Source: Escherichia virus TH41
Sequence record: MT446412.1
Direction: 5' to 3' (one strand)
DNA length: 64,000 nt
Of the stretch, positions 3,815 through 16,815 are shown in pieces (position 1 is the stretch's first letter; every line of letters starts with the position of its first letter). The notes beneath the pieces were generated by a model. The model did no database searches. It saw nothing but the letters and a program-made list of their open reading frames with translations, and was not told the DNA's origin. The position numbers were made by a program, and so were the translations under genes.

Positions 3815-4101
3815 TGAAATCTATCATGGCAGTATGTTTGGCTATTGGACTCGTTTCATGTGCCCAGAAGCCCGTTGTGGAGCCCACAATCCAAGTTCAT
3901 CCTAATTGGCCTGTTGCATTGGCTGATTACAAACAGCAATGGGAAGTTAAGGTAATTGAGGGTCAAGCCTGGGTTGGCATGCCTTTTGAAGCATCGCAAG
4001 AATTCAGGATTTGGATGAATGATGTAAAAAGGTATGTACATGACCAAAAAGGTATGTTATGTTATTATCGTTCTGAACTAAAAGAGGAACGTTGCAAATG
4101 A
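3811..4101 (+). CDS. o-spanin (Rz1-like outer-membrane lipoprotein, pseT.2-like)
   Basis: Signal peptide with lipobox (AIGLVSC), 96 aa, separate gene immediately after the i-spanin as in T4. Confidence 0.6.
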   Translation: MMKSIMAVCLAIGLVSCAQKPVVEPTIQVHPNWPVALADYKQQWEVKVIEGQAWVGMPFEASQEFRIWMNDVKRYVHDQKGMLCYYRSELKEERCK

Positions 4102-4201
4102 TAGAGTGTAGCCTTGGTTGGGATATTGTTAGATTTGGTGCATTCTGTTTTTGTTTTGGAATTGCGGCCACTTTATGTGTTCAAGGTCTTTTTGGAAAGT
4201 A

Positions 4202-4230
4202 GTGTACAAACTCTTGGGAGCATTATACTC
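4202..4230 (+). promoter_or_regulatory. Early-type promoter-like element with its -10 inside a 7-bp inverted repeat
   Basis: GTGTAC, 17 nt, TATACT; inverted repeat tgggagc/gctccca (about 4215-4238) brackets the -10; upstream of ORF 4266. Confidence 0.35.
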
Positions 4231-4265
4231 TGCTCCCACGGATTATAAAATTTGAGGAAATTATT

Positions 4266-5487
<1,222 letters not shown>

Positions 5488-5488
<1 letters not shown>

Positions 5489-5685
5489 TGAATAATATCG
5501 AAAAGATTTTTCGTACAATCGAAGAAATTGAAAAACGTAAATGCTTTTTCTTCGGCGTATGGCCTTTAACCGATGGACGTATTGGCCTGGATGTAATGGA
5601 CTATAAAGATGAAGACAAGGTCGATGGCGGTATCTTTAAATCCGCTCCAGAACTCTTGACCTTCTTGGAAGAACATTATGTATAA
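5488..5685 (+). CDS. Hypothetical small protein (cd.x-type cluster)
   Basis: 65 aa ORF with start overlapping the pseT stop; no recognisable domain. Confidence 0.4.
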
Positions 5686-5893
5686 CAAACACCATGAAGT
5701 TGAAGAAGAAGCTTATAAAGAGCTTCAGAAACTGGTAGGGCAGAATATGTCTCCTGCTCTTATCAACAACCTGGCTGCACTGCGTAATGACCTCAATGAA
5801 CGGTACAAGGGCGAATATTATGTTGAATTCGTTCCGCTGACTGAAGTCATTGACCGATTTATTGTTAATGTCAAGGTGCATACCGTCCATTAA
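5678..5893 (+). CDS. Hypothetical small protein
   Basis: 71 aa ORF overlapping the previous ORF by 8 nt. Confidence 0.4.
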   Translation: MYNKHHEVEEEAYKELQKLVGQNMSPALINNLAALRNDLNERYKGEYYVEFVPLTEVIDRFIVNVKVHTVH

Positions 5894-5918
5894 CGCTTTA
5901 AAAATTTTATGTTATAAT
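5892..5918 (+). promoter_or_regulatory. Middle-type (MotA-box-like) promoter
   Basis: aaCGCTTTA box, 12 nt, TATAAT; followed by GGGGTCTAGGTCC, related to the repeat at 24392, 29651 and 39817. Confidence 0.35.
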
Positions 5919-5964
5919 GGGGTCTAGGTCCTTTGGATACCCCAATAACTAAGCGAGAAAAGAA

Positions 5965-6243
5965 ATGTTTCCTACATATTCTGAAATTGTTAAAGTAGTT
6001 TTTAGTCAGATTGTATCTGATTATCTATACGAAAGCGTCGACGTGTCGACTGAACTAAAGGTGCATGGTCGTTTGTCTGCTATTCTGGAAATCATGTTCC
6101 CAGATGCAGTTGATGCAATCACTGTTCAACTCACACCTGGTGCAGCATTTGCAATTGTTCCGTTTAAAATTGATAACCACATTTTGGCTATTTCATGCAA
6201 AATGGACTTCCAGAAACAAACGGTAGTTGTCGAAGCAATTTAA
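5965..6243 (+). CDS. Hypothetical protein
   Basis: 92 aa ORF preceded by AAGCGAGAAAAGAA RBS-like sequence. Confidence 0.4.
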   Translation: MFPTYSEIVKVVFSQIVSDYLYESVDVSTELKVHGRLSAILEIMFPDAVDAITVQLTPGAAFAIVPFKIDNHILAISCKMDFQKQTVVVEAI

Positions 6244-6245
6244 GT

Positions 6246-6274
6246 GTTTACTTTCACCACGGATGGTGTATAAT
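6246..6274 (+). promoter_or_regulatory. Early-type promoter (GTTTAC-17-TATAAT)
   Basis: Consensus-like hexamers with 17-nt spacer; leader cacatgaggaaaacaaaATG is repeated at 16799-16818. Confidence 0.5.
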
Positions 6275-6303
6275 GAATTTCATCAACACATGAGGAAAAC
6301 AAA

Positions 6304-6846
6304 ATGAGTAATTTCTTTGAAGAAGGCAAGTTTTACAAGTTCGCATCTGAAAATGCCAAAAAACAGTTTATTGCCGGAGGCTGGGCAGCTAATTACCAAA
6401 TTGCCAAATACATCGGTATGACTCCGTTTGAAGTTAAGATTGTCCCTGATACTGCTAGCGGTGGAAGAAAAGTTTGTGAGATTCGTTTGATTGATGAAAA
6501 GAATTTTGTGGATTTGGCAAAAATATCTGGTGCAGAAAACAGGCATCATGGGGCAATGTTTGTTTCTGCTGGTCCATTGTCTGATGAATTTGATTATTTC
6601 ATCCAAGCGGAAGTTGGCGTTAAGCCAGAAGTTGAACCTGTGCCAGTAAAACTTGCATCAGTTTGGAAATTGCTTGTGGTTAAAAATGGCAAGATTGAGA
6701 TTAACTCTCGTCATGTGTCAAAAGAATATGCGGAAGGCGAAGCAGAGCGTCTGTTAAACCATGGTACTGCAGAAGATTGCTATATTATCAAAGGCGATAT
6801 CACAAAAGCTTCTATCATTAAACAAGTAAAACAGGAGACAATCTGA
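6304..6846 (+). CDS. Hypothetical protein
   Basis: 180 aa ORF, strong RBS GAGGAAAA 6 nt upstream. Confidence 0.5.
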   Translation: MSNFFEEGKFYKFASENAKKQFIAGGWAANYQIAKYIGMTPFEVKIVPDTASGGRKVCEIRLIDEKNFVDLAKISGAENRHHGAMFVSAGPLSDEFDYFIQAEVGVKPEVEPVPVKLASVWKLLVVKNGKIEINSRHVSKEYAEGEAERLLNHGTAEDCYIIKGDITKASIIKQVKQETI

Positions 6847-7091
6847 TGCTTAGCGAAACCCCAATTACTGTTGAAGAGTTCCACGAAAAAGTGAAAGCAT
6901 TCGCTCAAGCGATGATTAACCGTGTATCAGAGCGATTCCCTAATGCGACTTTGCAAGTTATTCAGGAATCTGCACGCAGTTTTATGATTGTCATTAATCC
7001 GAAAATTACTCTAAAAGGTGGTGACCAATTGACCCAACTGAAATTGGGTTCTGATGGTCTGGTTGAAGCGCAGCGAGTGTATATTCAATGA
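6846..7091 (+). CDS. Hypothetical protein
   Basis: 81 aa ORF with start overlapping upstream stop. Confidence 0.45.
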   Translation: MLSETPITVEEFHEKVKAFAQAMINRVSERFPNATLQVIQESARSFMIVINPKITLKGGDQLTQLKLGSDGLVEAQRVYIQ

Positions 7092-7423
7092 TGAATTTAA
7101 TGGATATTTTCCAGGAAGCACTTAAAAATGATTTGGGTGACCATCGTAAGTTGGACCCGGAGACAGCCGCATTTATCAAAGTAACGCTTGCGAATGATGC
7201 TCTGTTTAAAAGTATTCACCCAAGTAATTATGATGCGGTTGTTATTACAGAAGCTCCTGTAGAAATTGGTGAGCGAATGTTTGGGGTGATTTTTGGCGAT
7301 AAGAAAAAACGCTTCAGCGACGGTGATAGTATAATTACAACACATGTTAAGAGCATTACTAAATTGCGACATGAATTATATCGTGTTGAAACTATTAAAA
7401 CCAATTATCTCGTGGTGATGTAA
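7088..7423 (+). CDS. Hypothetical protein
   Basis: 111 aa ORF with start overlapping upstream stop. Confidence 0.45.
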   Translation: MMNLMDIFQEALKNDLGDHRKLDPETAAFIKVTLANDALFKSIHPSNYDAVVITEAPVEIGERMFGVIFGDKKKRFSDGDSIITTHVKSITKLRHELYRVETIKTNYLVVM

Positions 7424-8005
7424 ATGAAACCAACTACTGTTCTGCAAATCGCATACCTTGTATCTCAAGAATCCAAATGTTGCTCCTGGAAAGTGGGAGC
7501 TGTTATTGAAAAGAATGGCCGCATTATTTCTACAGGGTATAATGGTTCCCCTGCGGGTGGGGTTAACTGTTGCGAGCATGCGGAAGAGCAAGGTTGGTTA
7601 CTGAATAAACCTAAACCTGTTCTCGTCCCTGGTCATAAGCCAGAATGTGTGAGATTCAGTAAGGTTGACCGTTTTGTATTGGCGAAAGCCCATCGCGAAG
7701 AACATTCTGCATGGTCAAAGAACAACGAAATTCATGCCGAGCTTAATGCGATTCTGTTCGCAGCCAGAATGGGTTCATCAATTGAAGGCGCTACTATGTA
7801 TGTGACGCTTTCTCCTTGCCCTGATTGTGCAAAGGCAATTTCTCAATCAGGAATCAAGAAATTGGTTTACTGTGAAACGTATGATAAGAATATTCCTGGT
7901 TGGGATGATATCCTGAAGAACGCGGGAATTGAGGTGTTCAATGTGCCTAAGCGTAGTTTAGACAAATTGAACTGGGAAAACATTAACGAATTTTGTGGTG
8001 AATAA
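7424..8005 (+). CDS. cd: dCMP deaminase
   Basis: Zinc-binding deaminase motifs HAE...PCxxC (CCEHAEEQ; LSPCPDCAKAI); 193 aa as in T4 Cd. Confidence 0.9.
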   Translation: MKPTTVLQIAYLVSQESKCCSWKVGAVIEKNGRIISTGYNGSPAGGVNCCEHAEEQGWLLNKPKPVLVPGHKPECVRFSKVDRFVLAKAHREEHSAWSKNNEIHAELNAILFAARMGSSIEGATMYVTLSPCPDCAKAISQSGIKKLVYCETYDKNIPGWDDILKNAGIEVFNVPKRSLDKLNWENINEFCGE

Positions 8006-8238
8006 TGAAATTTCGTCTAGTTAAGTTTTCAGGTCTGAACTCAAAAGGTGAAAACCTGGTAGCCTTTTCAGTAGAATATAAAAAGTACTTTTTCTCTCGT
8101 TGGAAATCGTACTATAAATCTGAGTGGGTTCGCGCCGAAATGAAATATAAAACGGTGCCTATTCTTGATAATTGTCATAGCCTATTAAGAGCTCTAAAAG
8201 AGCGTAATGCAACAACCATTAAAACTGTTTTGGAATAA
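8005..8238 (+). CDS. Hypothetical protein (31.2 position)
   Basis: 77 aa ORF immediately after cd. Confidence 0.4.
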   Translation: MKFRLVKFSGLNSKGENLVAFSVEYKKYFFSRWKSYYKSEWVRAEMKYKTVPILDNCHSLLRALKERNATTIKTVLE

Positions 8239-8240
8239 TT

Positions 8241-8540
8241 ATGATTTTAACTGAACAAGAAACAATTCGTCTCCGTGAAAAAGTCAAGACTATTTTGTCT
8301 GTTGGTTTTCACGAAGTTCTGTTTGAAAAAGCAGATGGTAGCATCCGTCGTATGACTTGTACTCGCGACCTGGACCTGCTGCCGTATAAAGAAATCCAGA
8401 CCCCTGGACCAGAAGCTCATAAAGAACCAGTTAGCTATATCCGGGTATTTGATACCAAGCTTAATGAATGGCGTTCATTCTGTTTCAATAAATTGATTTC
8501 CGTGAATGGACTACAGACCGAGACACTGCTTGTCCTTTAA
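8241..8540 (+). CDS. Hypothetical protein (31.1 position)
   Basis: 99 aa ORF. Confidence 0.45.
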   Translation: MILTEQETIRLREKVKTILSVGFHEVLFEKADGSIRRMTCTRDLDLLPYKEIQTPGPEAHKEPVSYIRVFDTKLNEWRSFCFNKLISVNGLQTETLLVL

Positions 8541-8571
8541 TGCTTCAAACGGTGCGTGTTATTATTAATAC

Positions 8572-8919
8572 ATGACCAAACAACATGGATTAAATATGGA
8601 ATTACCAATTAAAGCAGTAGGTGAATATATTATTTTGGTTTCTGAGCCAAAGCAAGCTGGTGATGAAGAAACTACGGCATCAGGTATCGTTATCGGAAAA
8701 CTCCATCAGGGTGAAATCCCAGAGATGTGTGAAGTATTTTCGATTGGTCCGGATGTTCCTGAAGGTTTCTGTGAAGTGGGTGATTTGACTCCTCTTCCGG
8801 TTGGCAAGATTGCAAACGTTCCACATCCTCTGGTTGCTCTGGGACTTAAGCAGGCTAAAGAAGTTAAGCAGAAATTTGTGACCTGTCATTATAAAGCTGT
8901 TCCTTGTCTTTATAAGTAA
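8572..8919 (+). CDS. 31: Co-chaperonin for GroEL (GroES analogue) gp31
   Basis: [23 protein letters not shown]...[12 protein letters not shown]...[13 protein letters not shown]...[17 protein letters not shown] closely matches recalled T4 gp31; start could instead be the internal ATG at 8596. Confidence 0.85.
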
Positions 8920-8928
8920 AATTAGCGT

Positions 8929-8936
8929 TATAAATA
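8929..8936 (+). promoter_or_regulatory. Late promoter (TATAAATA)
   Basis: Exact T4 late-promoter octamer upstream of rIII. Confidence 0.45.
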
Positions 8937-9076
8937 ATAATATGGATTGGCTGCCGGACCCGTTAGTTAACCGGAGAATCCTAAACGGTGGACTACAACT
9001 GAGAGACTTGCCGAAAGGAAGTGAAATTCAGAAGAACGTGTCCACCAAATATTCACCTCGTATTGAGGCTTCTAAA

Positions 9077-9331
9077 ATGTCTTTAAATAAACAATTACAA
9101 CACGCTCTTGAACTGCAACGCACTGCATGGAATAACGGTCACGAAAACTACGGCGCATCTATTGATGTTGAAGCCGAAGCACTGGAAATTCTGCAGTATT
9201 TCAAACATCTTAACCCGATTCAAACCGACCTTCGCGCAGTGCTCGAAGCAAAAGATGAACTGAAATTTGCTAAGCCGCTGGCATCTGCTGCGCGTAAAGC
9301 TGTTCGTCATTTTGTCGTAACCCTGAAGTAA
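9077..9331 (+). CDS. rIII: rIII lysis-inhibition accessory protein
   Basis: 84 aa from ATG 9077 (RBS GAGG 8 nt upstream); ENYGASIDVEAEALEILQYFKHLNPIQTDLRAVLEAKDELKFAKPLASAARKAVRHFVVTLK resembles recalled T4 rIII; the track ORF from 8942 is treated as an unlikely N-terminal extension. Confidence 0.6.
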   Translation: MSLNKQLQHALELQRTAWNNGHENYGASIDVEAEALEILQYFKHLNPIQTDLRAVLEAKDELKFAKPLASAARKAVRHFVVTLK

Positions 9332-9728
9332 GCTGTAGGTGATTCGCTACCTTAGTGCGGCTAGAAAATCGAGGAGCCGCCGAATTATCTGATTAATGAT
9401 TTGCGAATCATTATAGTTTTAGACCCCGATAATTTTGTGGTGTACCTCTTGAATGTTATTCTTATAGCGGCAAGTGCATGCTACCCCGAGGTGATGGCCA
9501 ATCGGGAGTACGCCTCAAGGCCTATATATCCATCAGTATATATCTTATCCTCGAGAAATCGAACCCGGAACCTTTAAGCTAACGGTGTGCAACAGATAAG
9601 AGCTATAAGGTATGATGACGAGGTTTATGGTTATCCTGTCGTTAAATATCCGAAACCTAATGTTCCCTTCGAGGGCTTGCGCAGGCAATGCCAATAAGTC
9701 CTGCATTCTATTTTAAAGAGAATTTAAT

Positions 9729-9890
9729 ATGGCTAAGAAAGAAGTTAAAGTTGTTGATGGCTCCTCCAAACGCGCTGGTTACAAGCGTGCGTCCAACAAG
9801 CGAATCAATCAGGTAACTGATAAACTTCAGGCTCGTGCTCGTGCGGTATTGCGTGCCGATGCAGCTTGCTTTGGTAAGCCGAAAGCATAA
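9729..9890 (+). CDS. Small basic hypothetical protein (53 aa; not in ORF track)
   Basis: ATG with RBS AAAGAG 8 nt upstream, Lys/Arg-rich product, followed directly by a strong terminator. Confidence 0.35.
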   Translation: MAKKEVKVVDGSSKRAGYKRASNKRINQVTDKLQARARAVLRADAACFGKPKA

Positions 9891-9895
9891 GTTCA

Positions 9896-9919
9896 GGGAC
9901 TCTTCGGAGTCCCTTTTTT
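9896..9919 (+). terminator. Intrinsic terminator
   Basis: Hairpin gggactcTTCGgagtccc followed by TTTTTT. Confidence 0.7.
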
Positions 9920-9934
9920 ATTTTCCATAAAGGG

Positions 9935-9964
9935 GTTTACAACAGGGTTGGTCCAGTGCATAAT
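9935..9964 (+). promoter_or_regulatory. Early-type promoter (GTTTAC ... CATAAT) with conserved leader
   Basis: Leader cataatgattccatactgagtta is identical to the one at 33432-33454. Confidence 0.5.
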
Positions 9965-10005
9965 GATTCCATACTGAGTTACACAATAAAACACTGGAGA
10001 ATAAA

Positions 10006-10374
10006 ATGAAAATCAATCTTAACTCATACATCAAAGGTAAAGACCACGACGGTTACAAAGCCATTGAAACTAAAGAAATGCAATGGCACTTGTATAAAGA
10101 ACAATTTGAATTCGTTTCTTGCATGACTCCAGAAGGTCCTTCTGATGACTTCTCCTGGAAAATTATGGTAACAAACTTTTTTACTGGTGATACCTACGAA
10201 CTGAAAACTTTGATTCTTGGTAAGATTCGTTGTAAGACCTATGAAGATGAAGAAACTGGTTATTCTGAAGATGTTACATGGTATCAAAATGGTCGCACCA
10301 CTGCTGATGATTTGATTGAAAAAATGAAAGCTAAGGGTGAATTAAATTTAGATAATTGGATTAAAGTCGCATAA
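10006..10374 (+). CDS. Hypothetical protein (30.x-type cluster)
   Basis: 122 aa ORF; RBS GGAGAA. Confidence 0.5.
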   Translation: MKINLNSYIKGKDHDGYKAIETKEMQWHLYKEQFEFVSCMTPEGPSDDFSWKIMVTNFFTGDTYELKTLILGKIRCKTYEDEETGYSEDVTWYQNGRTTADDLIEKMKAKGELNLDNWIKVA

Positions 10375-10378
10375 AACA

Positions 10379-10407
10379 GTTTACTTTGGTACAGGTTATG
10401 ATATTAT
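10379..10407 (+). promoter_or_regulatory. Early-type promoter (GTTTAC-17-TATTAT) inside a 9-bp perfect inverted repeat
   Basis: ggtacaggt ... acctgtacc (about 10388-10418) flanks the -10 hexamer. Confidence 0.45.
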
Positions 10408-10445
10408 AGACCTGTACCAACAAATGAAAACAACTGGAGAATAAA

Positions 10446-10811
10446 ATGAACTACATCAACTTTGAACGCAAATATGTTTCTAACTGCATCCCAGGTTCTT
10501 CTGAAGTTATTTGCTTGTGGAAACATAAAAATGGTTCAGTGTGCGAAATTGAGCAGTATATGACTCCTAACTACGTTTATATGCGATTTGAAAATGGTAT
10601 CACTCTTTCAATCACTATGACTGGTTCAACTTTTAAAATTGCTTTAGATGATGATTTCCGTGAACGTGATTTAGGGACTCATCCTTGCTGGAATGGTGTT
10701 AATCGCAAGCTGTTGGTTAAAACTTGGATTCGTCATATCCTGGGTAACAAAGCAAAACCTGAACACCTGGAAGCAATCTTTGATGTAGTTCTTAATGAAT
10801 TTGATATCTAA
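10446..10811 (+). CDS. Hypothetical protein
   Basis: 121 aa ORF; leader ACTGGAGAATAAAATG shared with ORF 10006. Confidence 0.5.
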   Translation: MNYINFERKYVSNCIPGSSEVICLWKHKNGSVCEIEQYMTPNYVYMRFENGITLSITMTGSTFKIALDDDFRERDLGTHPCWNGVNRKLLVKTWIRHILGNKAKPEHLEAIFDVVLNEFDI

Positions 10812-10848
10812 TCTTAAATGGGGGCGAAAGCCCCTTGAGGAAAATACT

Positions 10849-11136
10849 ATGTTTATGACTACTTACTTTGATACACGTAAAAATTTCTGTGAAGTTGTTT
10901 TCTCTAAAAAAGGCCCTAATGTTCCTGCTGGGTGTGAACCAACACGCGATTCCATTAAGAACTATGTTGATGTAGTTTGCCCAGTTGAATTCAGGACTGT
11001 TAATGGACGTGATACTCTGGCAATCACCAAGCTTAGACGCGACATTGATATTGACCCAATTGCGGCGCGGGAAATTAATTCATCTGATATTAATGGCGGT
11101 AATGTTAAATCGCGCGGTTTCCTGACGAGGTTCTAA
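10849..11136 (+). CDS. Hypothetical protein
   Basis: 95 aa from ATG 10849 with RBS GAGGA 7 nt upstream; the track start at 10795 is a non-ATG upstream extension. Confidence 0.45.
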   Translation: MFMTTYFDTRKNFCEVVFSKKGPNVPAGCEPTRDSIKNYVDVVCPVEFRTVNGRDTLAITKLRRDIDIDPIAAREINSSDINGGNVKSRGFLTRF

Positions 11137-11330
11137 TGCAACTATTCTTATCACAAACAGTTCAGTTAAAAGGTGTGGGTATTCCTGGAATGATTTCTAA
11201 GGTCTTACCTGCTTTTAAATTGGGTAATAACCAAATTAAAGAAGCCTATGTAGTCCTGTGGGTTGATGGAACTGAAGATGTTCGCATGGACGGTGAACTG
11301 TCTGTAATCAAATGTTTAAGGCGAGGATAA
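11136..11330 (+). CDS. Hypothetical small protein
   Basis: 64 aa; RBS GAGG; start overlaps upstream stop (TAATG). Confidence 0.45.
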   Translation: MQLFLSQTVQLKGVGIPGMISKVLPAFKLGNNQIKEAYVVLWVDGTEDVRMDGELSVIKCLRRG

Positions 11331-11331
11331 T

Positions 11332-11544
11332 ATGTTTAAGAAACTGATTCAGAAAATTTTGGGCACAGAAATGGTTGAAGTTACTTATCGCGTAACTGAC
11401 GTGAGTCCATGGGCCCGAAATATTGAACCATATACTAAAACAATTAAAATGCTGAAATCTGACGGTGGATTATCTATTAAAGACCGTCTACCTGGTTATG
11501 GTCATTGGGCTGATGTAGATATTATCAGTGTCAAAGATGTCTGA
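11332..11544 (+). CDS. Hypothetical small protein
   Basis: 70 aa; RBS GAGGA. Confidence 0.45.
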   Translation: MFKKLIQKILGTEMVEVTYRVTDVSPWARNIEPYTKTIKMLKSDGGLSIKDRLPGYGHWADVDIISVKDV

Positions 11545-11995
11545 GTTAGAAATCAGAAGCAATTTCCCATGGCCATCATGTGCATTAAGTAACTTTGCTA
11601 AATGGCCTTTTGTTATGGATGGCATCCAGTTTGGAGGTCTTGAAGGCTTCCTCCAAGGGTGTAAGGTGAGAAATCATGAACAACAAAAACGTATATTTGG
11701 GATGTCCGGTCTGGCCGCACAACAAACTGGAAGAGCTTATGCTAGAGCTGCGGACCGTGGGACGCTTTTCTGGCTTGGAATTCCCTTTTCAAGATACTCT
11801 GCATCATGGAAAGAGTTGTATACAAATGCTTATTTTGAAGCAGCGCTTCAAAACAAAGGATTCCGCGACGCATTACAAGCTACAAAGGGCAAAGTTTTAA
11901 AGCATTCGATGGCGAGCCACCTTACTGTTCATGATACAATATTGACTGAACAAGAATTTATTGACATACTTAACCAATTGAGAGATGCATTATGA
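11537..11995 (+). CDS. NADAR-like (YbiA/DUF1768-like) domain protein
   Basis: N-terminal pattern SNF..WP....DG..F...E...Q..K (LSNFAKWPFVMDGIQFGGLEGFLQGCKV) resembles the NADAR family; the track start at 11528 is a GTG, first ATG is 11537. Confidence 0.45.
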   Translation: MSELEIRSNFPWPSCALSNFAKWPFVMDGIQFGGLEGFLQGCKVRNHEQQKRIFGMSGLAAQQTGRAYARAADRGTLFWLGIPFSRYSASWKELYTNAYFEAALQNKGFRDALQATKGKVLKHSMASHLTVHDTILTEQEFIDILNQLRDAL

Positions 11996-12810
11996 AACCC
12001 GTTATTTTAACAGATATTGATGGCGTATGTTTGTCATGGCAGTCTGGCTTGCCTTATTTCGCCCAAAAATATAATTTACCCCTGGAACATATCCTTAAGA
12101 TGATTCAGGATGAAAAATTTGTGACCCCTGGTAAACTGTTCAATTGTGATGAAGAGTTGGGAGCACAGTTGATTGAGAAATATAACTGTTCAGATTTTAT
12201 TCGCTATTTGTCTCCTTACGCAGATGCATTAGGGGTTATTAATAACCTCAAAGAGCAATATGATTTTGTGGCTGTTACGGCTCTGGGTGATTCCATTGAT
12301 GCCCGTCTGAATCGTCAATTCAACCTGAATGCTTTGTTCCCTGGCGCATTTAAAGAAGTGATGATGTGCGGCCATACAGCCTCTAAAGAAGAGTTATTTC
12401 AGAAAGCGAAGACCAAATATAATGTCGTTTGTTATATTGATGACCTTGCACACCATTGCGACCATGCGAGTGAAATCCTTGAAGTCCCGGTTTATTGGAT
12501 GGCTCGTGGCGAACGTGATGCTATTCCTAAAACAGCTTCCAAAGTTTTTAATTGGGACGATGTTGCTGGACAGCTTAAGTTGAAACACAAAGATGAACCG
12601 GTCAAACCCGAATTCACCCCAGATGAACTCCGTAAACTGGAAGAGTTGTTTCGTGAAAGTCGACGTCTTCAACAACAAATGCAGCAAGGATGGCAACCAG
12701 GTCAACCATGGACCCCTGGATATAATCCAGCATATCCATATCAATATGGCCAGCGCGTAGGTACTGGTATTGAATACTGGTACAATCAACCGACTGGCGG
12801 AAGGGGTTAA
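11992..12810 (+). CDS. HAD-superfamily hydrolase-like protein with Q/P/Y-rich C-terminal tail
   Basis: Motif-I-like ILTDIDGV at the N-terminus (HAD DxDG[VT] signature); 272 aa; C-terminus QQQMQQGWQPGQPWTPGYNPAYPYQYGQ is low complexity. Confidence 0.5.
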   Translation: MKPVILTDIDGVCLSWQSGLPYFAQKYNLPLEHILKMIQDEKFVTPGKLFNCDEELGAQLIEKYNCSDFIRYLSPYADALGVINNLKEQYDFVAVTALGDSIDARLNRQFNLNALFPGAFKEVMMCGHTASKEELFQKAKTKYNVVCYIDDLAHHCDHASEILEVPVYWMARGERDAIPKTASKVFNWDDVAGQLKLKHKDEPVKPEFTPDELRKLEELFRESRRLQQQMQQGWQPGQPWTPGYNPAYPYQYGQRVGTGIEYWYNQPTGGRG

Positions 12811-12811
12811 T

Positions 12812-13090
12812 ATGTTTGTCGTTCATACTATTTCAGACCGTGGTCCAGTCACCACGATGGATTACGGCCATGTTAACCAGTTTATTCGTCATGTGAATCA
12901 TAATTACTCGTTTGATATTAATCCGGTCAAGGATAACCCAATCTGGCGGGAATGTGTTGAACAAGGATTTATCTATGTTCACTTCCTGACTAAAATGAAA
13001 CCAGATGGTGCAACTAAATTTGTGCTCACTTATCATAAGCGGTTGGATTTGCTTTTGGAAGACGTGGCATATAATAGAGTCAACGACTAA
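12812..13090 (+). CDS. Hypothetical protein (30.1 position)
   Basis: 92 aa from ATG 12812 with RBS GGAAGGGG upstream; the track start at 12770 overlaps the HAD gene. Confidence 0.45.
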   Translation: MFVVHTISDRGPVTTMDYGHVNQFIRHVNHNYSFDINPVKDNPIWRECVEQGFIYVHFLTKMKPDGATKFVLTYHKRLDLLLEDVAYNRVND

Positions 13091-13100
13091 GAGGTGATTA

Positions 13101-14633
13101 ATGATTTTAGATATTTTAAATGAAATTGCTGCAACCGATTCCACTAAAGAGAAACAAGCTATTCTGGAATCGTATTCTGACAATGAAACCCTCAAACGTG
13201 TGTATCGTTTGACATATTCCAAAGGCATCCAGTTCTATATTAAGAAATGGCCAAAACCTGGGGCAACGACTCAAAGCTTTGGCATGTTGAATATCGATGA
13301 TATGCTTGACTTTATCGAATTCACATTGGCCTCTCGTAAATTAACAGGTAATGCTGCAATCGAGGAATTATCTGGCTATATTGCTGATGGTAAAAAAGCA
13401 GATGTTGAAGTCCTGCGCCGTGTGATGATGCGTGACCTGGAATGCGGGGCATCCGTATCAATTGCAAATAAGGTTTGGAAAGGTTTAATTCCTGAACAAC
13501 CGCAGATGCTCGCTTCTTCCTATGATGAAGCCGGTATTGCCAAGAACATTAAGTTCCCGGCCTTTGCGCAATTGAAAGCCGACGGCGCCCGGTGTTTTGC
13601 AGAAGTTCGTGGCGATGAGTTGGATGATGTTCGATTGTTATCCCGAGCTGGCAACGAATACCTAAAGCTTGACCTCCTTAAAAAGGAATTGATTGAAGCT
13701 ACTCGTGAAGCGCGTGAGAGACATCCTGAGGGCGTTTTGATTGACGGTGAGTTAGTATACCATGAACAGAAAATAGCTCCCCAGAATGATGGTTTGGGCT
13801 TCCTTTTTGACGATTCAGATGAGATTGCCCCTGCACAAGAAACTGCGGAATCAAGAACCTTTTCAAATGGTCTGGCAAACAAATCATTGAAAGGAACTAT
13901 TTCTGCAACAGAAGCTGCTTGTATGAAATTCCAGGTTTGGGATTATGTTCCACTGATTGAAGTCTATTCTGATGTTAAGATTCTCAATCCGTTGAAATAC
14001 GATGTGCGTTTTGCTGTTCTGGAAAAGATGATTGCAGATAACGTGGTGCTGCATGGTTTCGACCGCATGATTCTGATTGAAAACCATGTTGTTAACAATC
14101 TCGATGAAGCGAAGGTTATCTATAAGAAATACGTGGATGAAGGTCTTGAAGGTATTATCCTTAAGAACATGGCATCGATTTGGGAAAACAAGCGCTCAAA
14201 GAACCTGTATAAGTTCAAAGAAGTAATTGACATTGCAATGGAAATCATTGGATATTACGAGCACGATAAAGACCCGAATAAGATTGGCGGTGTTGTGCTT
14301 CGTTCTTCTTGTGGTAAGATTACGAATAACTGTGGTTCTGGGTTTAAAGACACAACTCAAGTTAAAGATAAGAAAACCAAAAAATGGGTTACTATTCCGA
14401 TTGAGGAGCGTCATAAAATGGATCGTGAAGCCTTAATGGTTAAAGCCCGTAAAGGTGAATTGGTTGGAATGATTGCCGACTGTGAATGTAATGGTTGGTT
14501 GACTTCCGAGACTCGTAAAGATAATACGGTTGCATTGTTCCTGCCGATTATCAAAGGGTTCCGTTTCGATAAAGACCATGCAGACACATTCGAAGATGTA
14601 TTTGGCGACTGGTCAAAGACTGGGTTAAAATAA
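13101..14633 (+). CDS. 30: ATP-dependent DNA ligase
   Basis: Adenylation motif KADG (FAQLKADGARCF), 510 aa, RBS GAGGTGA; position next to alt as in T4. Confidence 0.9.
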   Translation: MILDILNEIAATDSTKEKQAILESYSDNETLKRVYRLTYSKGIQFYIKKWPKPGATTQSFGMLNIDDMLDFIEFTLASRKLTGNAAIEELSGYIADGKKADVEVLRRVMMRDLECGASVSIANKVWKGLIPEQPQMLASSYDEAGIAKNIKFPAFAQLKADGARCFAEVRGDELDDVRLLSRAGNEYLKLDLLKKELIEATREARERHPEGVLIDGELVYHEQKIAPQNDGLGFLFDDSDEIAPAQETAESRTFSNGLANKSLKGTISATEAACMKFQVWDYVPLIEVYSDVKILNPLKYDVRFAVLEKMIADNVVLHGFDRMILIENHVVNNLDEAKVIYKKYVDEGLEGIILKNMASIWENKRSKNLYKFKEVIDIAMEIIGYYEHDKDPNKIGGVVLRSSCGKITNNCGSGFKDTTQVKDKKTKKWVTIPIEERHKMDREALMVKARKGELVGMIADCECNGWLTSETRKDNTVALFLPIIKGFRFDKDHADTFEDVFGDWSKTGLK

Positions 14634-16754: not shown

Positions 16755-16783
16755 GTTTACAAGCACAAGGAAGTGCGATACAA
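16755..16783 (+). promoter_or_regulatory. Early-type promoter (GTTTAC-17-TACAAT)
   Basis: Hexamers with 17-nt spacer; downstream leader shared with the promoter at 6246. Confidence 0.45.
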
Positions 16784-16815
16784 TGTTCATATCAATTGCA
16801 CATGAGGAAAACAAA

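Follow-up and report, generated by a model that had tools for sequence, protein, structure and literature searches.

The two clusters of small open reading frames (ORFs) in the window, which is the whole 64,000-nt stretch of DNA that was analysed, are best explained as ordinary hyperplastic regions of a Gaprivervirus genome. This explanation, which we regard as likely, takes their content to be mutually unrelated, individually dispensable early accessory genes whose products would be single-acting binders, with no cooperative system among them. The observation made in the initial annotation is confirmed and its interpretation is partly supported. The finding holds up but is not new, because nine of the eleven ORFs are counterparts of named T4 genes; it is already known in kind, plastic T4-type regions with small early ORFs being well documented.

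Gene content and coding status

The features of the two clusters can be seen in Table 1. All eleven ORFs listed in the initial annotation were found on the + strand at the coordinates given there, six of 65-180 aa between pseT and cd (cluster A) and five of 64-122 aa between rIII and the NADAR gene (cluster B). The four flanking genes had also been called correctly, the NADAR gene corresponding to T4 30.3/AdfN. The arrangement is compact and overlapping as described, with adjacent genes that either overlap by 1-8 nt or are separated by 0-115 nt: the start of the cd.4 orthologue overlaps the stop of pseT by 1 nt, the 71-aa ORF overlaps cd.4 by 8 nt, and 30.4 likewise runs 8 nt into the start of 30.3/AdfN. 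Each of the four larger gaps contains a promoter-like site. Good ribosome-binding sites, claimed for the clusters as a whole, are found for seven of the eleven ORFs (GGAG, GAGG or AGGAG); those of the ORFs starting at 5488, 5678, 5965 and 7088 are weaker, and three of these four overlap or abut the gene upstream.

Table 1 Features of the two clusters, with positions counted from the first nucleotide of the window
Feature	Coordinates	Strand	Remarks
cd.4 orthologue, 65 aa	5488..5685	+	acidic, pI 4.7
71-aa ORF, JS98 gp214 family	5678..5893	+	phrog_3609, E 5e-41
Promoter-like site TTAACG-N17-TATAAT, TG-extended, then hairpin GGGGTCTAGGTCC...GGATACCCC	5890..5943	+	gap upstream of cd.3
cd.3 orthologue, 92 aa	5965..6243	+	hydrophobic, gravy +0.6
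Promoter-like site TTTACT-N16-TATAAT	6247..6274	+	upstream of 180-aa ORF
180-aa ORF, JS98 gp212 family, lineage-restricted	6304..6846	+	
cd.2 orthologue, 81 aa	6846..7091	+	PF24005 DUF7320, E 7e-32
cd.1 orthologue, 111 aa	7088..7423	+	61% identity to T4 cd.1
PeSL-like element, left border of 30.8 cassette	9895..9964	+	
30.8 orthologue, 122 aa, long allele class	10006..10374	+	mostly beta, C-terminal helix 96-110
Right border of 30.8 cassette	10380..10445	+	promoter-like TTTACT-N16-TATTAT, then RBS/start cassette ACTGGAGAATAAAATG
30.7 orthologue, 121 aa	10446..10811	+	PF06919 (Phage_T4_Gp30_7), E 5e-52
30.6 orthologue, 95 aa, basic	10849..11136	+	phrog_2153
30.5 orthologue, 64 aa	11136..11330	+	phrog_1690, E 3e-28
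30.4 orthologue, 70 aa	11332..11544	+	44% identity to T4 30.4; phrog_2042
30.3 orthologue (NADAR; AdfN in T4), flanking context	11537..11995	+	PF08010, E 2e-64

The window comes from a Gaprivervirus and is ~100% identical to Escherichia phage UPEC01 across both clusters, and the public UPEC01 record already annotates all eleven ORFs. Nine of them (cd.4, cd.3, cd.2, cd.1 and 30.8-30.4) have named T4 genes as their syntenic orthologues, at 40-89% identity, and two, 5678-5893 and the 180-aa ORF at 6304-6846, have no T4 counterpart, so that the ORFs cannot be called novel. Each of the eleven matches its own PHROG family (E 1e-28 to 1e-69). The initial annotation had recognised no domains; this holds with regard to function, but four ORFs do match Pfam families of unknown function. 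These are DUF7355 for cd.3 (PF24051, E 4e-31, 107.4 bits against a gathering cutoff of 27), DUF7320 for cd.2 (109.8 bits against 27), Phage_30_8 for 30.8 (PF06019, 149.1 bits against 25, covering residues 2-121 of 122 aa) and Phage_T4_Gp30_7 for 30.7 (175.2 bits against 27, full length).

The median pairwise dN/dS against relatives lies between 0.03 and 0.29 in all eleven ORFs, and each of them is a genuine coding sequence under selection. It is therefore scarcely conceivable that some are non-functional remnants or mis-called frames, a reading that could draw on the weak Shine-Dalgarno sequences of four ORFs and on the laboratory dispensability of all the T4 orthologues. It is already largely refuted by selection and proteomics data: dN/dS is far under 1 in every ORF, the families are conserved across genera, and proteins have been detected for the T4 orthologues.

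The genes of cluster A differ in their conservation. The cd.4 orthologue, which is named in the SP18 annotation, is 54% identical to T4 cd.4 over its full length (phrog_2360, E 6e-37; dN/dS 0.11), and the cd.3 and cd.2 orthologues are 43% and 53% identical to their T4 namesakes (dN/dS 0.27 for cd.3). The 71-aa ORF, for which comparison with T4 gave no match and no counterpart in the T4 region, is found in 25 of 43 loci and shows the strongest constraint among the eleven (dN/dS 0.03). The cd.1 orthologue has a conserved C-terminal module with the motif F-x-D-K-x-x-R-x-x-D-G; it matches phrog_2063 (E 5e-44) and, more weakly and with its C-terminal half, five other PHROGs. Just 12 representative clusters of cd.1 were found among 1.8 billion proteins, and a search of these 1.8 billion representatives gave no bacterial or non-T4-like relatives. 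A DinI-like assignment of cd.2 (E 0.04) was rejected, since its 14.7 bits fall below the cutoff of 24.2 and a PDB search with the family profile does not recover DinI at E <= 10.

In cluster B, 30.7 is better conserved and more widely distributed than any other of the eleven genes (89% identity to T4; 37 of 43 loci), with H27, D69, R74, H79, P80 and D113 invariant. Its 57 homologue clusters all come from T4-like phages, and no bacterial or non-T4-like relatives were found among 5.8 billion proteins. Judged from sequence conservation, the invariant His, Asp and Arg residues could mark a small enzyme, and they could equally well fit a binder. The 30.6 orthologue is 78% identical to T4 30.6 over residues 1-95; a reading of 113 aa from 10795 was discarded, the T4 orthologue not supporting it.

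Expression and dispensability in T4

The initial annotation took the genes to be early, and published omics data on the T4 orthologues agree (PMC9697503): they are early at the RNA level and early or middle as proteins, with cd.2 early as both (PMC9697503 supplement). Transposon sequencing of T4 classed cd.1-cd.5 and 30.1-30.9 as non-essential throughout, with 95-100% of TA sites hit. In the T4 CRISPRi-ART data ten of the eleven genes of cd.1-cd.5 and 30.4-30.9 are 'Not Fit', and 30.6 is borderline ('Semi-Fit', score 0.72, p = 0.067). Among the conditionally essential hits named in the part of the HIDEN-SEQ text covered here, no T4 orthologue of the ORFs appears.

Plasticity and the 30.8 cassette

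The regions are hyperplastic, as had been proposed. Over 42 T4-like loci the pseT-cd interval measures 717-2636 bp and the rIII-30.2 interval 1700-4756 bp, a 3-4 fold variation in length among relatives, and gene presence is patchy, varying either independently or with phylogeny. In locus L036 the family of the 180-aa ORF is represented in the other of the two clusters. The gap at 5890..5943 is missing in Dhakavirus L030; its hairpin folds weakly (z = -1.6). At the promoter-like site upstream of the 180-aa ORF, the T4 annotation places an early promoter in the equivalent cd.3/cd.2 gap.

One such case is 30.8, which is an exchangeable cassette bounded by PeSL-like terminator/promoter elements (PeSLs being the promoter-early stem-loop cassettes of T4-type phages; PMC4122927). 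The left border consists of a terminator hairpin, AGGGACTC-TTCG-GAGTCCCT with a T-run, at 9895-9914, followed by the promoter-like sequence TTTACA-N17-CATAAT at 9936-9964. At the right border the promoter-like site lies inside a strong hairpin at 10386-10420 (fold z = -4.4; 0 of 200 shuffles equally stable). The 16-mer ribosome-binding cassette ACTGGAGAATAAAATG occurs exactly twice in the 64 kb, at 9993 and 10433, flanking 30.8. Homology to T4 and to Dhakavirus L030 and L032 stops at 9923-9927 and restarts at 10379-10380, whereas in L031 it is continuous through the cassette; the breakpoints coincide with the terminator hairpin and the next promoter. Within Dhakavirus the 30.8 alleles form two classes (38% versus 95% identity). 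This adds a clean case of PeSL-bounded allele replacement.

The AlphaFold model of gp30.8 has a confident fold, for which fold searches returned no structural relative, and the analysis thus also adds a high-confidence gp30.8 model without a known structural relative. The 73 homologue clusters match PF06019 only and all belong to T4-like phages or phage-like contigs; no bacterial or non-T4-like relatives were found among 5.8 billion proteins. One public record (PQ341120) labels a homologue 'Imm63', a polymorphic-toxin immunity protein that sits near toxin genes and in bacterial polyimmunity loci (PMC3482391). The label was rejected: none of 17 diverse family members matches Imm63 at E <= 10, the 73 clusters are all phage and PF06019 only, and fold searches returned no structural match. 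A hint of the VbhA antitoxin (E 0.08) was likewise set aside, since only 3 of 17 members show it and the match, 20 residues long, scores below threshold.

Transcription runs rightward from predicted sigma-70-type early promoters in the intergenic gaps, and genes come and go and exchange alleles via recombination at the repeated PeSL-like terminator/promoter elements.

Relationships among the ORFs

The initial annotation pointed to the clusters as likely places for uncharacterised systems. A system of cooperating genes is not borne out: the families are unrelated, no PADLOC or NCBIfam match was obtained, and the genes are present independently of each other or in step with phylogeny. Paralogy among the eleven small ORFs was discarded after all-against-all hhalign gave a top probability of 6%. 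PADLOC had zero matches at E <= 0.01 for the ten ORFs other than 30.5, and NCBIfam none for the small ORFs. Among solved structures no significant sequence relatives were found for ten of the eleven families, and Rfam gave no matches on 4000-13200 at E <= 1. No further function could be assigned from Pfam, PHROGs, NCBIfam, PADLOC or PDB profiles, from comparison with billions of proteins, or from two AlphaFold models and the fold searches made with them.

We therefore consider it very unlikely that the genes of the clusters, or some of them (30.6-30.5-30.4-30.3, for example), work together as a single system. Such a reading would appeal to the tight packing with its 1-8 nt overlaps and to the phyletic pattern common to 30.3, 30.4 and 30.6. 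Tight packing, however, is normal throughout T4-type genomes, and the common pattern is limited to one clade (T4, Gaprivervirus and Dhakavirus) and is therefore not independent evidence. Besides the missing PADLOC matches, T4 30.3/AdfN alone is the single significant DarTG1 hit in the HIDEN-SEQ preprint, and Ppk, the partner of 30.5, is unrelated.

The 180-aa ORF and GoF

In the 180-aa ORF, a GoF-like N-terminal domain (approximately residues 1-75 of a domain spanning 1-102) is followed by a disordered linker at 106-117 and, at 121-163, by a small C-terminal domain of the beta-beta-alpha-beta type. Its N-terminus aligns with GoF in hhalign with 83% probability (E 8.7e-6, 47 columns), and GoF N-terminal homology is also seen in its match to phrog_2980 (E 1e-8). 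Its best family is phrog_5804 and not the goF family, and full-length similarity fails, the alignment covering residues ~3-72 only. No bacterial or non-T4-like relatives were found among 5.8 billion proteins. The analysis thus adds a link of this Gaprivervirus/Dhakavirus-specific ORF to GoF, which is described in T4 as an 'mRNA metabolism modulator' that overcomes the effects of rho mutants.

The target of the 180-aa ORF is probably Rho/mRNA metabolism, the pathway that its relative GoF also affects. A more specific reading makes it a functional GoF paralogue, in which the N-terminal domain would be a modulator of Rho-dependent termination or of the stability of mRNA and the C-terminal domain would be an adaptor, possibly ClpS-like. 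We hold this reading to be unlikely, and the ClpS-like reading of the C-terminal domain is a weak lead. A connection of the 180-aa ORF to bNACHT11, through identifying the CoaA-binding bNACHT11 trigger 'T2 gp6' with GoF, was considered and dropped, as the T4 coordinates correspond to gene 39.2.

Host targets and defence

The initial annotation expected the clusters to be enriched for host-takeover functions. This idea holds for one ORF, 30.5, because the T4 protein binds Ppk and is sensed by bNACHT11. T4 30.5 co-purifies with host Ppk, as confirmed by reciprocal IP; it activates the bNACHT11 defence protein, and its deletion gives partial bNACHT11 evasion with no growth cost (bioRxiv 10.1101/2024.12.17.629029, preprint). 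The window orthologue lies between 30.6 and 30.4 and is 67% identical to T4 30.5 (NP_049819.1) over 63 of 64 residues. The role of this T4 orthologue, reported in a preprint, is the sole direct functional support among the eleven ORFs. A published role thus exists for only one of the eleven, and the ORFs are not all homologues of characterised T4 proteins.

With 30.5 as the worked example, each of these small proteins may work alone, binding one host protein stoichiometrically so as to adjust or block it. In this example the T4 orthologue binds polyphosphate kinase, its recognition by bNACHT11 being a side effect, and the other ten ORFs would most likely act in the same way on host metabolic, RNA-handling or defence proteins. 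The binder mechanism is an extrapolation for these ten, by analogy with 30.5.

A different emphasis is that, of the ten uncharacterised ORFs, at least one encodes a dedicated inhibitor of host defence, needed only when a natural host carries the matching system. Foremost among the candidates are 30.8, 30.4 and the 180-aa ORF. The two allele classes of 30.8 are swapped as cassettes between close relatives, and 30.4, whose translation is coupled to that of AdfN, is accompanied by it in every case (12 of 12 loci for 30.4 and 30.3), although this co-occurrence is confounded by phylogeny. The neighbour 30.3/AdfN is a proven anti-DarTG1 factor in T4 (HIDEN-SEQ preprint), and the blocking of defence systems has recently been shown for further small T4 ORFs without domains, nrdC.1 among them. 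The T4 orthologues are all dispensable on K-12, which would suit such a role. Against this, Pfam, PHROGs, NCBIfam and PADLOC gave no homology to known anti-defence or defence proteins, the Imm63 label, which had seemed to favour the idea for 30.8, fails the direct test, and the portion of the HIDEN-SEQ text covered here names no ORF orthologue among its conditional hits. We see an inhibitor of this kind as possible and somewhat doubtful. The same doubt attaches to the bolder form of the idea, that at least one orphan (gp30.8, gp30.4 or the GoF-like 180-aa protein being the candidates) is a new inhibitor, without structural precedent, of a defence system of natural E. coli hosts. The anti-defence reading overlaps the explanation by single-acting accessory genes and does not exclude it.

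The practical value of the analysis is a shortlist, ten of the eleven genes awaiting a role. Recent work shows dispensable T4 ORFs proving one by one to be host-enzyme binders (30.5-Ppk), immune-sensor triggers (bNACHT11) and defence blockers (AdfN, nrdC.1).

Comparison with known systems

Compared with the cd.x and 30.x genes of T4, the ORFs of the window have the same order and the same strand relative to pseT, cd, rIII and 30.3, align over their full length and fall into the same Pfam and PHROG families. T4, on the other hand, carries cd.5 and is without the 71-aa and 180-aa ORFs. The 30.8 allele of the window (122-aa long class) is only 40% identical to the 110-aa allele of T4. The 30.5 orthologue keeps all family-invariant residues of T4 30.5 (V9, I16, P17, G18, Y38, W42, D44, G45 and E54), whereas one third of its residues differ; for the T4 protein, Ppk binding and bNACHT11 activation were shown by co-IP/MS and genetics. 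The 30.3 orthologue is 86% identical to T4 30.3/AdfN and lies directly downstream of 30.4. With T4 GoF (ComC-alpha) the 180-aa ORF has a homologous N-terminal domain in common; its C-terminal 100 residues are unrelated, and the locus differs, goF adjoining gene 39 in T4.

The promoter-like boxes at 6247 and 10380 fit the T4-group consensus TTTACW-N17-TAYWAT with spacers of 16 nt, while the site at 9936 has the N17 spacer but a CATAAT -10 box; a strict match within the window occurs only at 16756. Unlike published PeSLs, one hairpin here encloses the -10 box rather than preceding the promoter. What the clusters share with the published hyperplastic and PeSL regions of T4-type phages (Arbiol 2010, PMC2839356; Comeau 2014, PMC4122927) is the placement of variable genes between conserved anchors, with a terminator hairpin and an early promoter in the gaps.

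Identity of the eleven ORFs

All eleven ORFs of the initial annotation, six between pseT and cd (5488-7423) and five between rIII and the NADAR gene (10006-11544), were found on the + strand with the coordinates and sizes it gave, and they are real genes. Each matches its own PHROG family (E 1e-28 to 1e-69), and the median dN/dS of each against relatives is 0.03-0.29 (pairwise Nei-Gojobori). Neighbouring ORFs overlap by 1-8 nt or are separated by short gaps. The good ribosome-binding sites claimed for these ORFs hold for seven, which have a clear GGAG/GAGG Shine-Dalgarno; those at 5488, 5678, 5965 and 7088 are weaker, and three of these four ORFs overlap or abut the upstream gene.

For naming the orthologues we drew on the T4 reference annotation, on tblastn against T4 and on the records of SP18 and VR7, which use T4-style names. 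Nine ORFs are syntenic orthologues of T4 genes, as listed in the table, and T4 differs in having cd.5, which is absent from the window. For the 30.6 orthologue the start is 10849 rather than the earlier ATG (10795), since T4 30.6 aligns over residues 1-95. Four of the eleven fall in function-unknown Pfam families (DUF7355, DUF7320, Phage_30_8 and Phage_T4_Gp30_7). The gene described earlier as NADAR-like is the T4 30.3 orthologue (PF08010).

The window's sequence agrees with that of a Ugandan wastewater phage, Escherichia phage UPEC01 (MW233709.1; Straboviridae, Tevenvirinae, Gaprivervirus), with identity rounding to 100% across both clusters. Direct comparison up to 12,794 gave one different base, at 9775, versus 82 differences or indels from 12,795 on (12795-14000), a stretch running from the 3' end of 30.2 through 30.1 into the first part of the ligase gene. 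The DNA thus comes from a close but mosaic relative of UPEC01 and not from UPEC01 itself; the two clusters are, in effect, UPEC01 sequence. Because the sequences diverge from 12,795, gene ends at 12816 and 13094 in the UPEC01 record stand against ORF ends at 12810 and 13090 in the window. That record already annotates all eleven ORFs, as 'hypothetical protein' except for one that is wrongly called 'putative baseplate hub'; doubtful product names are given in the table.

Features of the window. Identity is to T4; presence is the number of loci out of 43. Names in quotation marks are doubtful product names of the UPEC01 record.
Feature	Position	Strand	Identity	Presence	Remark
cd.4	5488-5685	+	54%		
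71-aa ORF (JS98 gp214 family)	5678-5893	+			no counterpart in this T4 region
Promoter-like site	5890-5918				TTAACG-N17-TATAAT
cd.3	5965-6243	+	43%		
Promoter-like site	6247-6274				TTTACT-N16-TATAAT
180-aa ORF (JS98 gp212 family)	6304-6846	+		10	no counterpart in this T4 region
cd.2	6846-7091	+	53%	31	
cd.1	7088-7423	+	61%		
cd (dCMP deaminase)	7424-8005				'tRNA-specific adenosine deaminase'
31.2 and 31.1	8005-8540				'tail fibers protein'
31.1	8241-8540			43	WYL_2 domain
Tiny ORF	9401-9577				TTG start
Tiny ORF	9612-9716				
Terminator hairpin	9895-9914				canonical
Promoter-like site	9936-9964				TTTACA-N17-CATAAT, after the hairpin
30.8	10006-10374	+	40%	33	
Promoter-like site	10380-10407				TTTACT-N16-TATTAT, inside strong hairpin (z = -4.4)
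30.7	10446-10811	+	89%	37	
30.6	10849-11136	+	78%		
30.5	11136-11330	+	67%		
30.4	11332-11544	+	44%		'putative baseplate hub'
30.3	11537-11995	+	86%		
30.3' (74 aa)	11676-11900	+			other frame inside 30.3; internal gene annotated in T4 and VR7
30.1 (DUF3045)	12812-13090				'baseplate tail tube cap protein'
Exact PeSL consensus	16756-16784				

Variability of the two intervals

Presence was counted over 43 loci: T4 and 42 T4-like loci retrieved with cd as anchor. Across the 42 loci the pseT-cd interval ranges over 717-2636 bp and the rIII-30.2 interval over 1700-4756 bp, and the eleven families are patchy in presence. The most widespread small ORF nearby is the 31.1 orthologue, whose WYL_2 domain is an Sm-like SH3 beta-barrel (PF10902, E 1.4e-11). 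In SP18 (locus L001, 1290-1989) and VR25 (locus L007, 7369-8068), 699 bp are inserted between pseT and cd.4; for SP18 the annotation of this insertion is a site-specific intron-like (homing) endonuclease, encoded on the opposite strand. The window lacks the insertion, the corresponding position being 5488/5489. The UPEC01 annotation has two more tiny ORFs between rIII and 30.9, of which the first may not be a gene because it starts with TTG, has a hydrophobic product and matches no PHROG or Pfam family.

Promoter-like sites and exchange of 30.8

A sigma-70-type promoter-like site is present in all four of the larger gaps between genes. In architecture these gaps match the promoter-early stem-loop (PeSL) cassettes of the literature, with T4-group consensus TTTACW-N17-TAYWAT (PMC4122927), but they differ in exact spacing; the exact consensus occurs once in the 64-kb window.

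DNA homology of the window to T4, and to Dhakavirus loci L030 and L032, stops at the terminator hairpin (9923-9927) and restarts at the -35 box of the next promoter (10379-10380). In Dhakavirus locus L031 it is unbroken through the 30.8 stretch; this locus carries the window-type allele, its 30.8 protein being 95% identical to that of the window, versus 38% for sister Dhakavirus loci. There are two allele classes, about 40% identical to each other: one of ~120-122 aa (window) and one of 110 aa (T4, most Dhakavirus). The swapped unit is the promoter plus the 30.8 gene (window 9924-10379; L030, L031, L032 and a further T4-like locus, L004). The 16-mer ACTGGAGAATAAAATG, spanning RBS and start codon, has exactly two copies in the 64-kb window: one lies upstream of 30.8, the other upstream of 30.7. 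At least for 30.8, promoter and gene are thus exchanged together, as a cassette with PeSL-like borders.

The 180-aa ORF family occurs in 83 of 50,697 phage records, all Gaprivervirus (>80% identity) or Dhakavirus (~45%). In the Serratia-phage-like locus L036 (12942-13463) the other cluster contains a 30%-identical homologue, placed between 30.8 and 30.7, so the family moves between the two hyperplastic regions. The structure model of the 180-aa ORF is moderate (pLDDT 77), with two domains and a disordered linker between them, and its N-terminal domain shows homology to the N-terminus of the T4 mRNA-metabolism modulator GoF (hhalign 83%, E 8.7e-6).

Search for function

All-against-all profile comparison gave no paralogy among the eleven families, profile searches of ten families against all PDB sequences gave nothing significant, and NCBIfam, PADLOC (ten of the ORFs) and Rfam (4000-13200) gave zero matches. 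In profile searches of 5.8 billion proteins every cluster came from T4-like phages and had no extra domain; 30.8 gave 73 of them, 30.7 gave 57 and the 180-aa ORF 49. With phmmer, 12 clusters were found for cd.1 among 1.8 billion representatives. The Imm63 label of a 30.8 homologue in one public record fails direct test. Conservation of gp30.7 is at least as strong as that of the neighbouring enzymes cd (86%), pseT (76%) and ligase (69%). Its invariant residues (His27, Asp69, Arg74, His79-Pro80 and Asp113) might form a catalytic site or bind a metal, in which case the protein would not be a simple binder.

Discussion

In T4, the RNAs of all nine orthologues are early; the proteins are early for 30.4-30.8 and cd.2 and middle for cd.1, cd.3 and cd.4 (time-resolved transcriptome/proteome study, PMC9697503, supplementary files 4 and 6). 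According to supplementary file 7 of the HIDEN-SEQ transposon-sequencing preprint (bioRxiv 10.1101/2025.11.20.689424), cd.1-cd.5 and 30.1-30.9 are non-essential, with 95-100% of TA sites disrupted. In CRISPRi-ART knock-down (PMC11879866, supplementary file 15), 30.4, 30.5, 30.7, 30.8, 30.9 and cd.1-cd.5 are 'Not Fit' and 30.6 is 'Semi-Fit' (0.72, p = 0.067).

Among the eleven, one ORF, 30.5, would have a published molecular role through its T4 orthologue. Colony formation was blocked when T4 30.5 was expressed together with bNACHT11, an NLR-related defence protein; T4 without 30.5 partly escaped bNACHT11 and a triple mutant did so nearly fully, and the deletion had no cost when bNACHT11 was absent. 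Host polyphosphate kinase co-purified with 30.5, as reciprocal IP confirmed (Whiteley laboratory preprint, bioRxiv 10.1101/2024.12.17.629029). T4 30.5 thus has a host enzyme as binding partner and is detected by an immune receptor, and the other ten proteins probably act likewise, as small binders of host proteins. By orthology, the gene flanking the second cluster would be a known counter-defence factor: T4 30.3 is AdfN, needed against DarTG1 according to the HIDEN-SEQ preprint.

The eleven are true early genes, non-essential (in T4) and distributed independently of one another. Both clusters are best read as ordinary hyperplastic regions of unrelated, early, dispensable accessory genes, each protein acting singly. 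The initial annotation had instead placed possible uncharacterised systems here; its observation is confirmed and its interpretation partly supported, but nothing supports a cooperative 'system'. The sole hint of one concerns 30.4, which overlaps the start of the AdfN orthologue by 8 nt (11332-11995) and is accompanied by it in 12 of the 12 loci having 30.4 (Fisher p = 5e-8, confounded by phylogeny), a hint of translational coupling or a functional link. Against cooperation stand that confounding and, in HIDEN-SEQ, AdfN alone as the single hit against DarTG1. We consider it rather unlikely that at least one of the ORFs is a dedicated anti-defence inhibitor. The value lies in a candidate shortlist (30.8, 30.4, the GoF-like 180-aa ORF and 30.7), not in a discovery: the clusters are already known in kind and in detail, with genes named, annotated and partly screened in T4.
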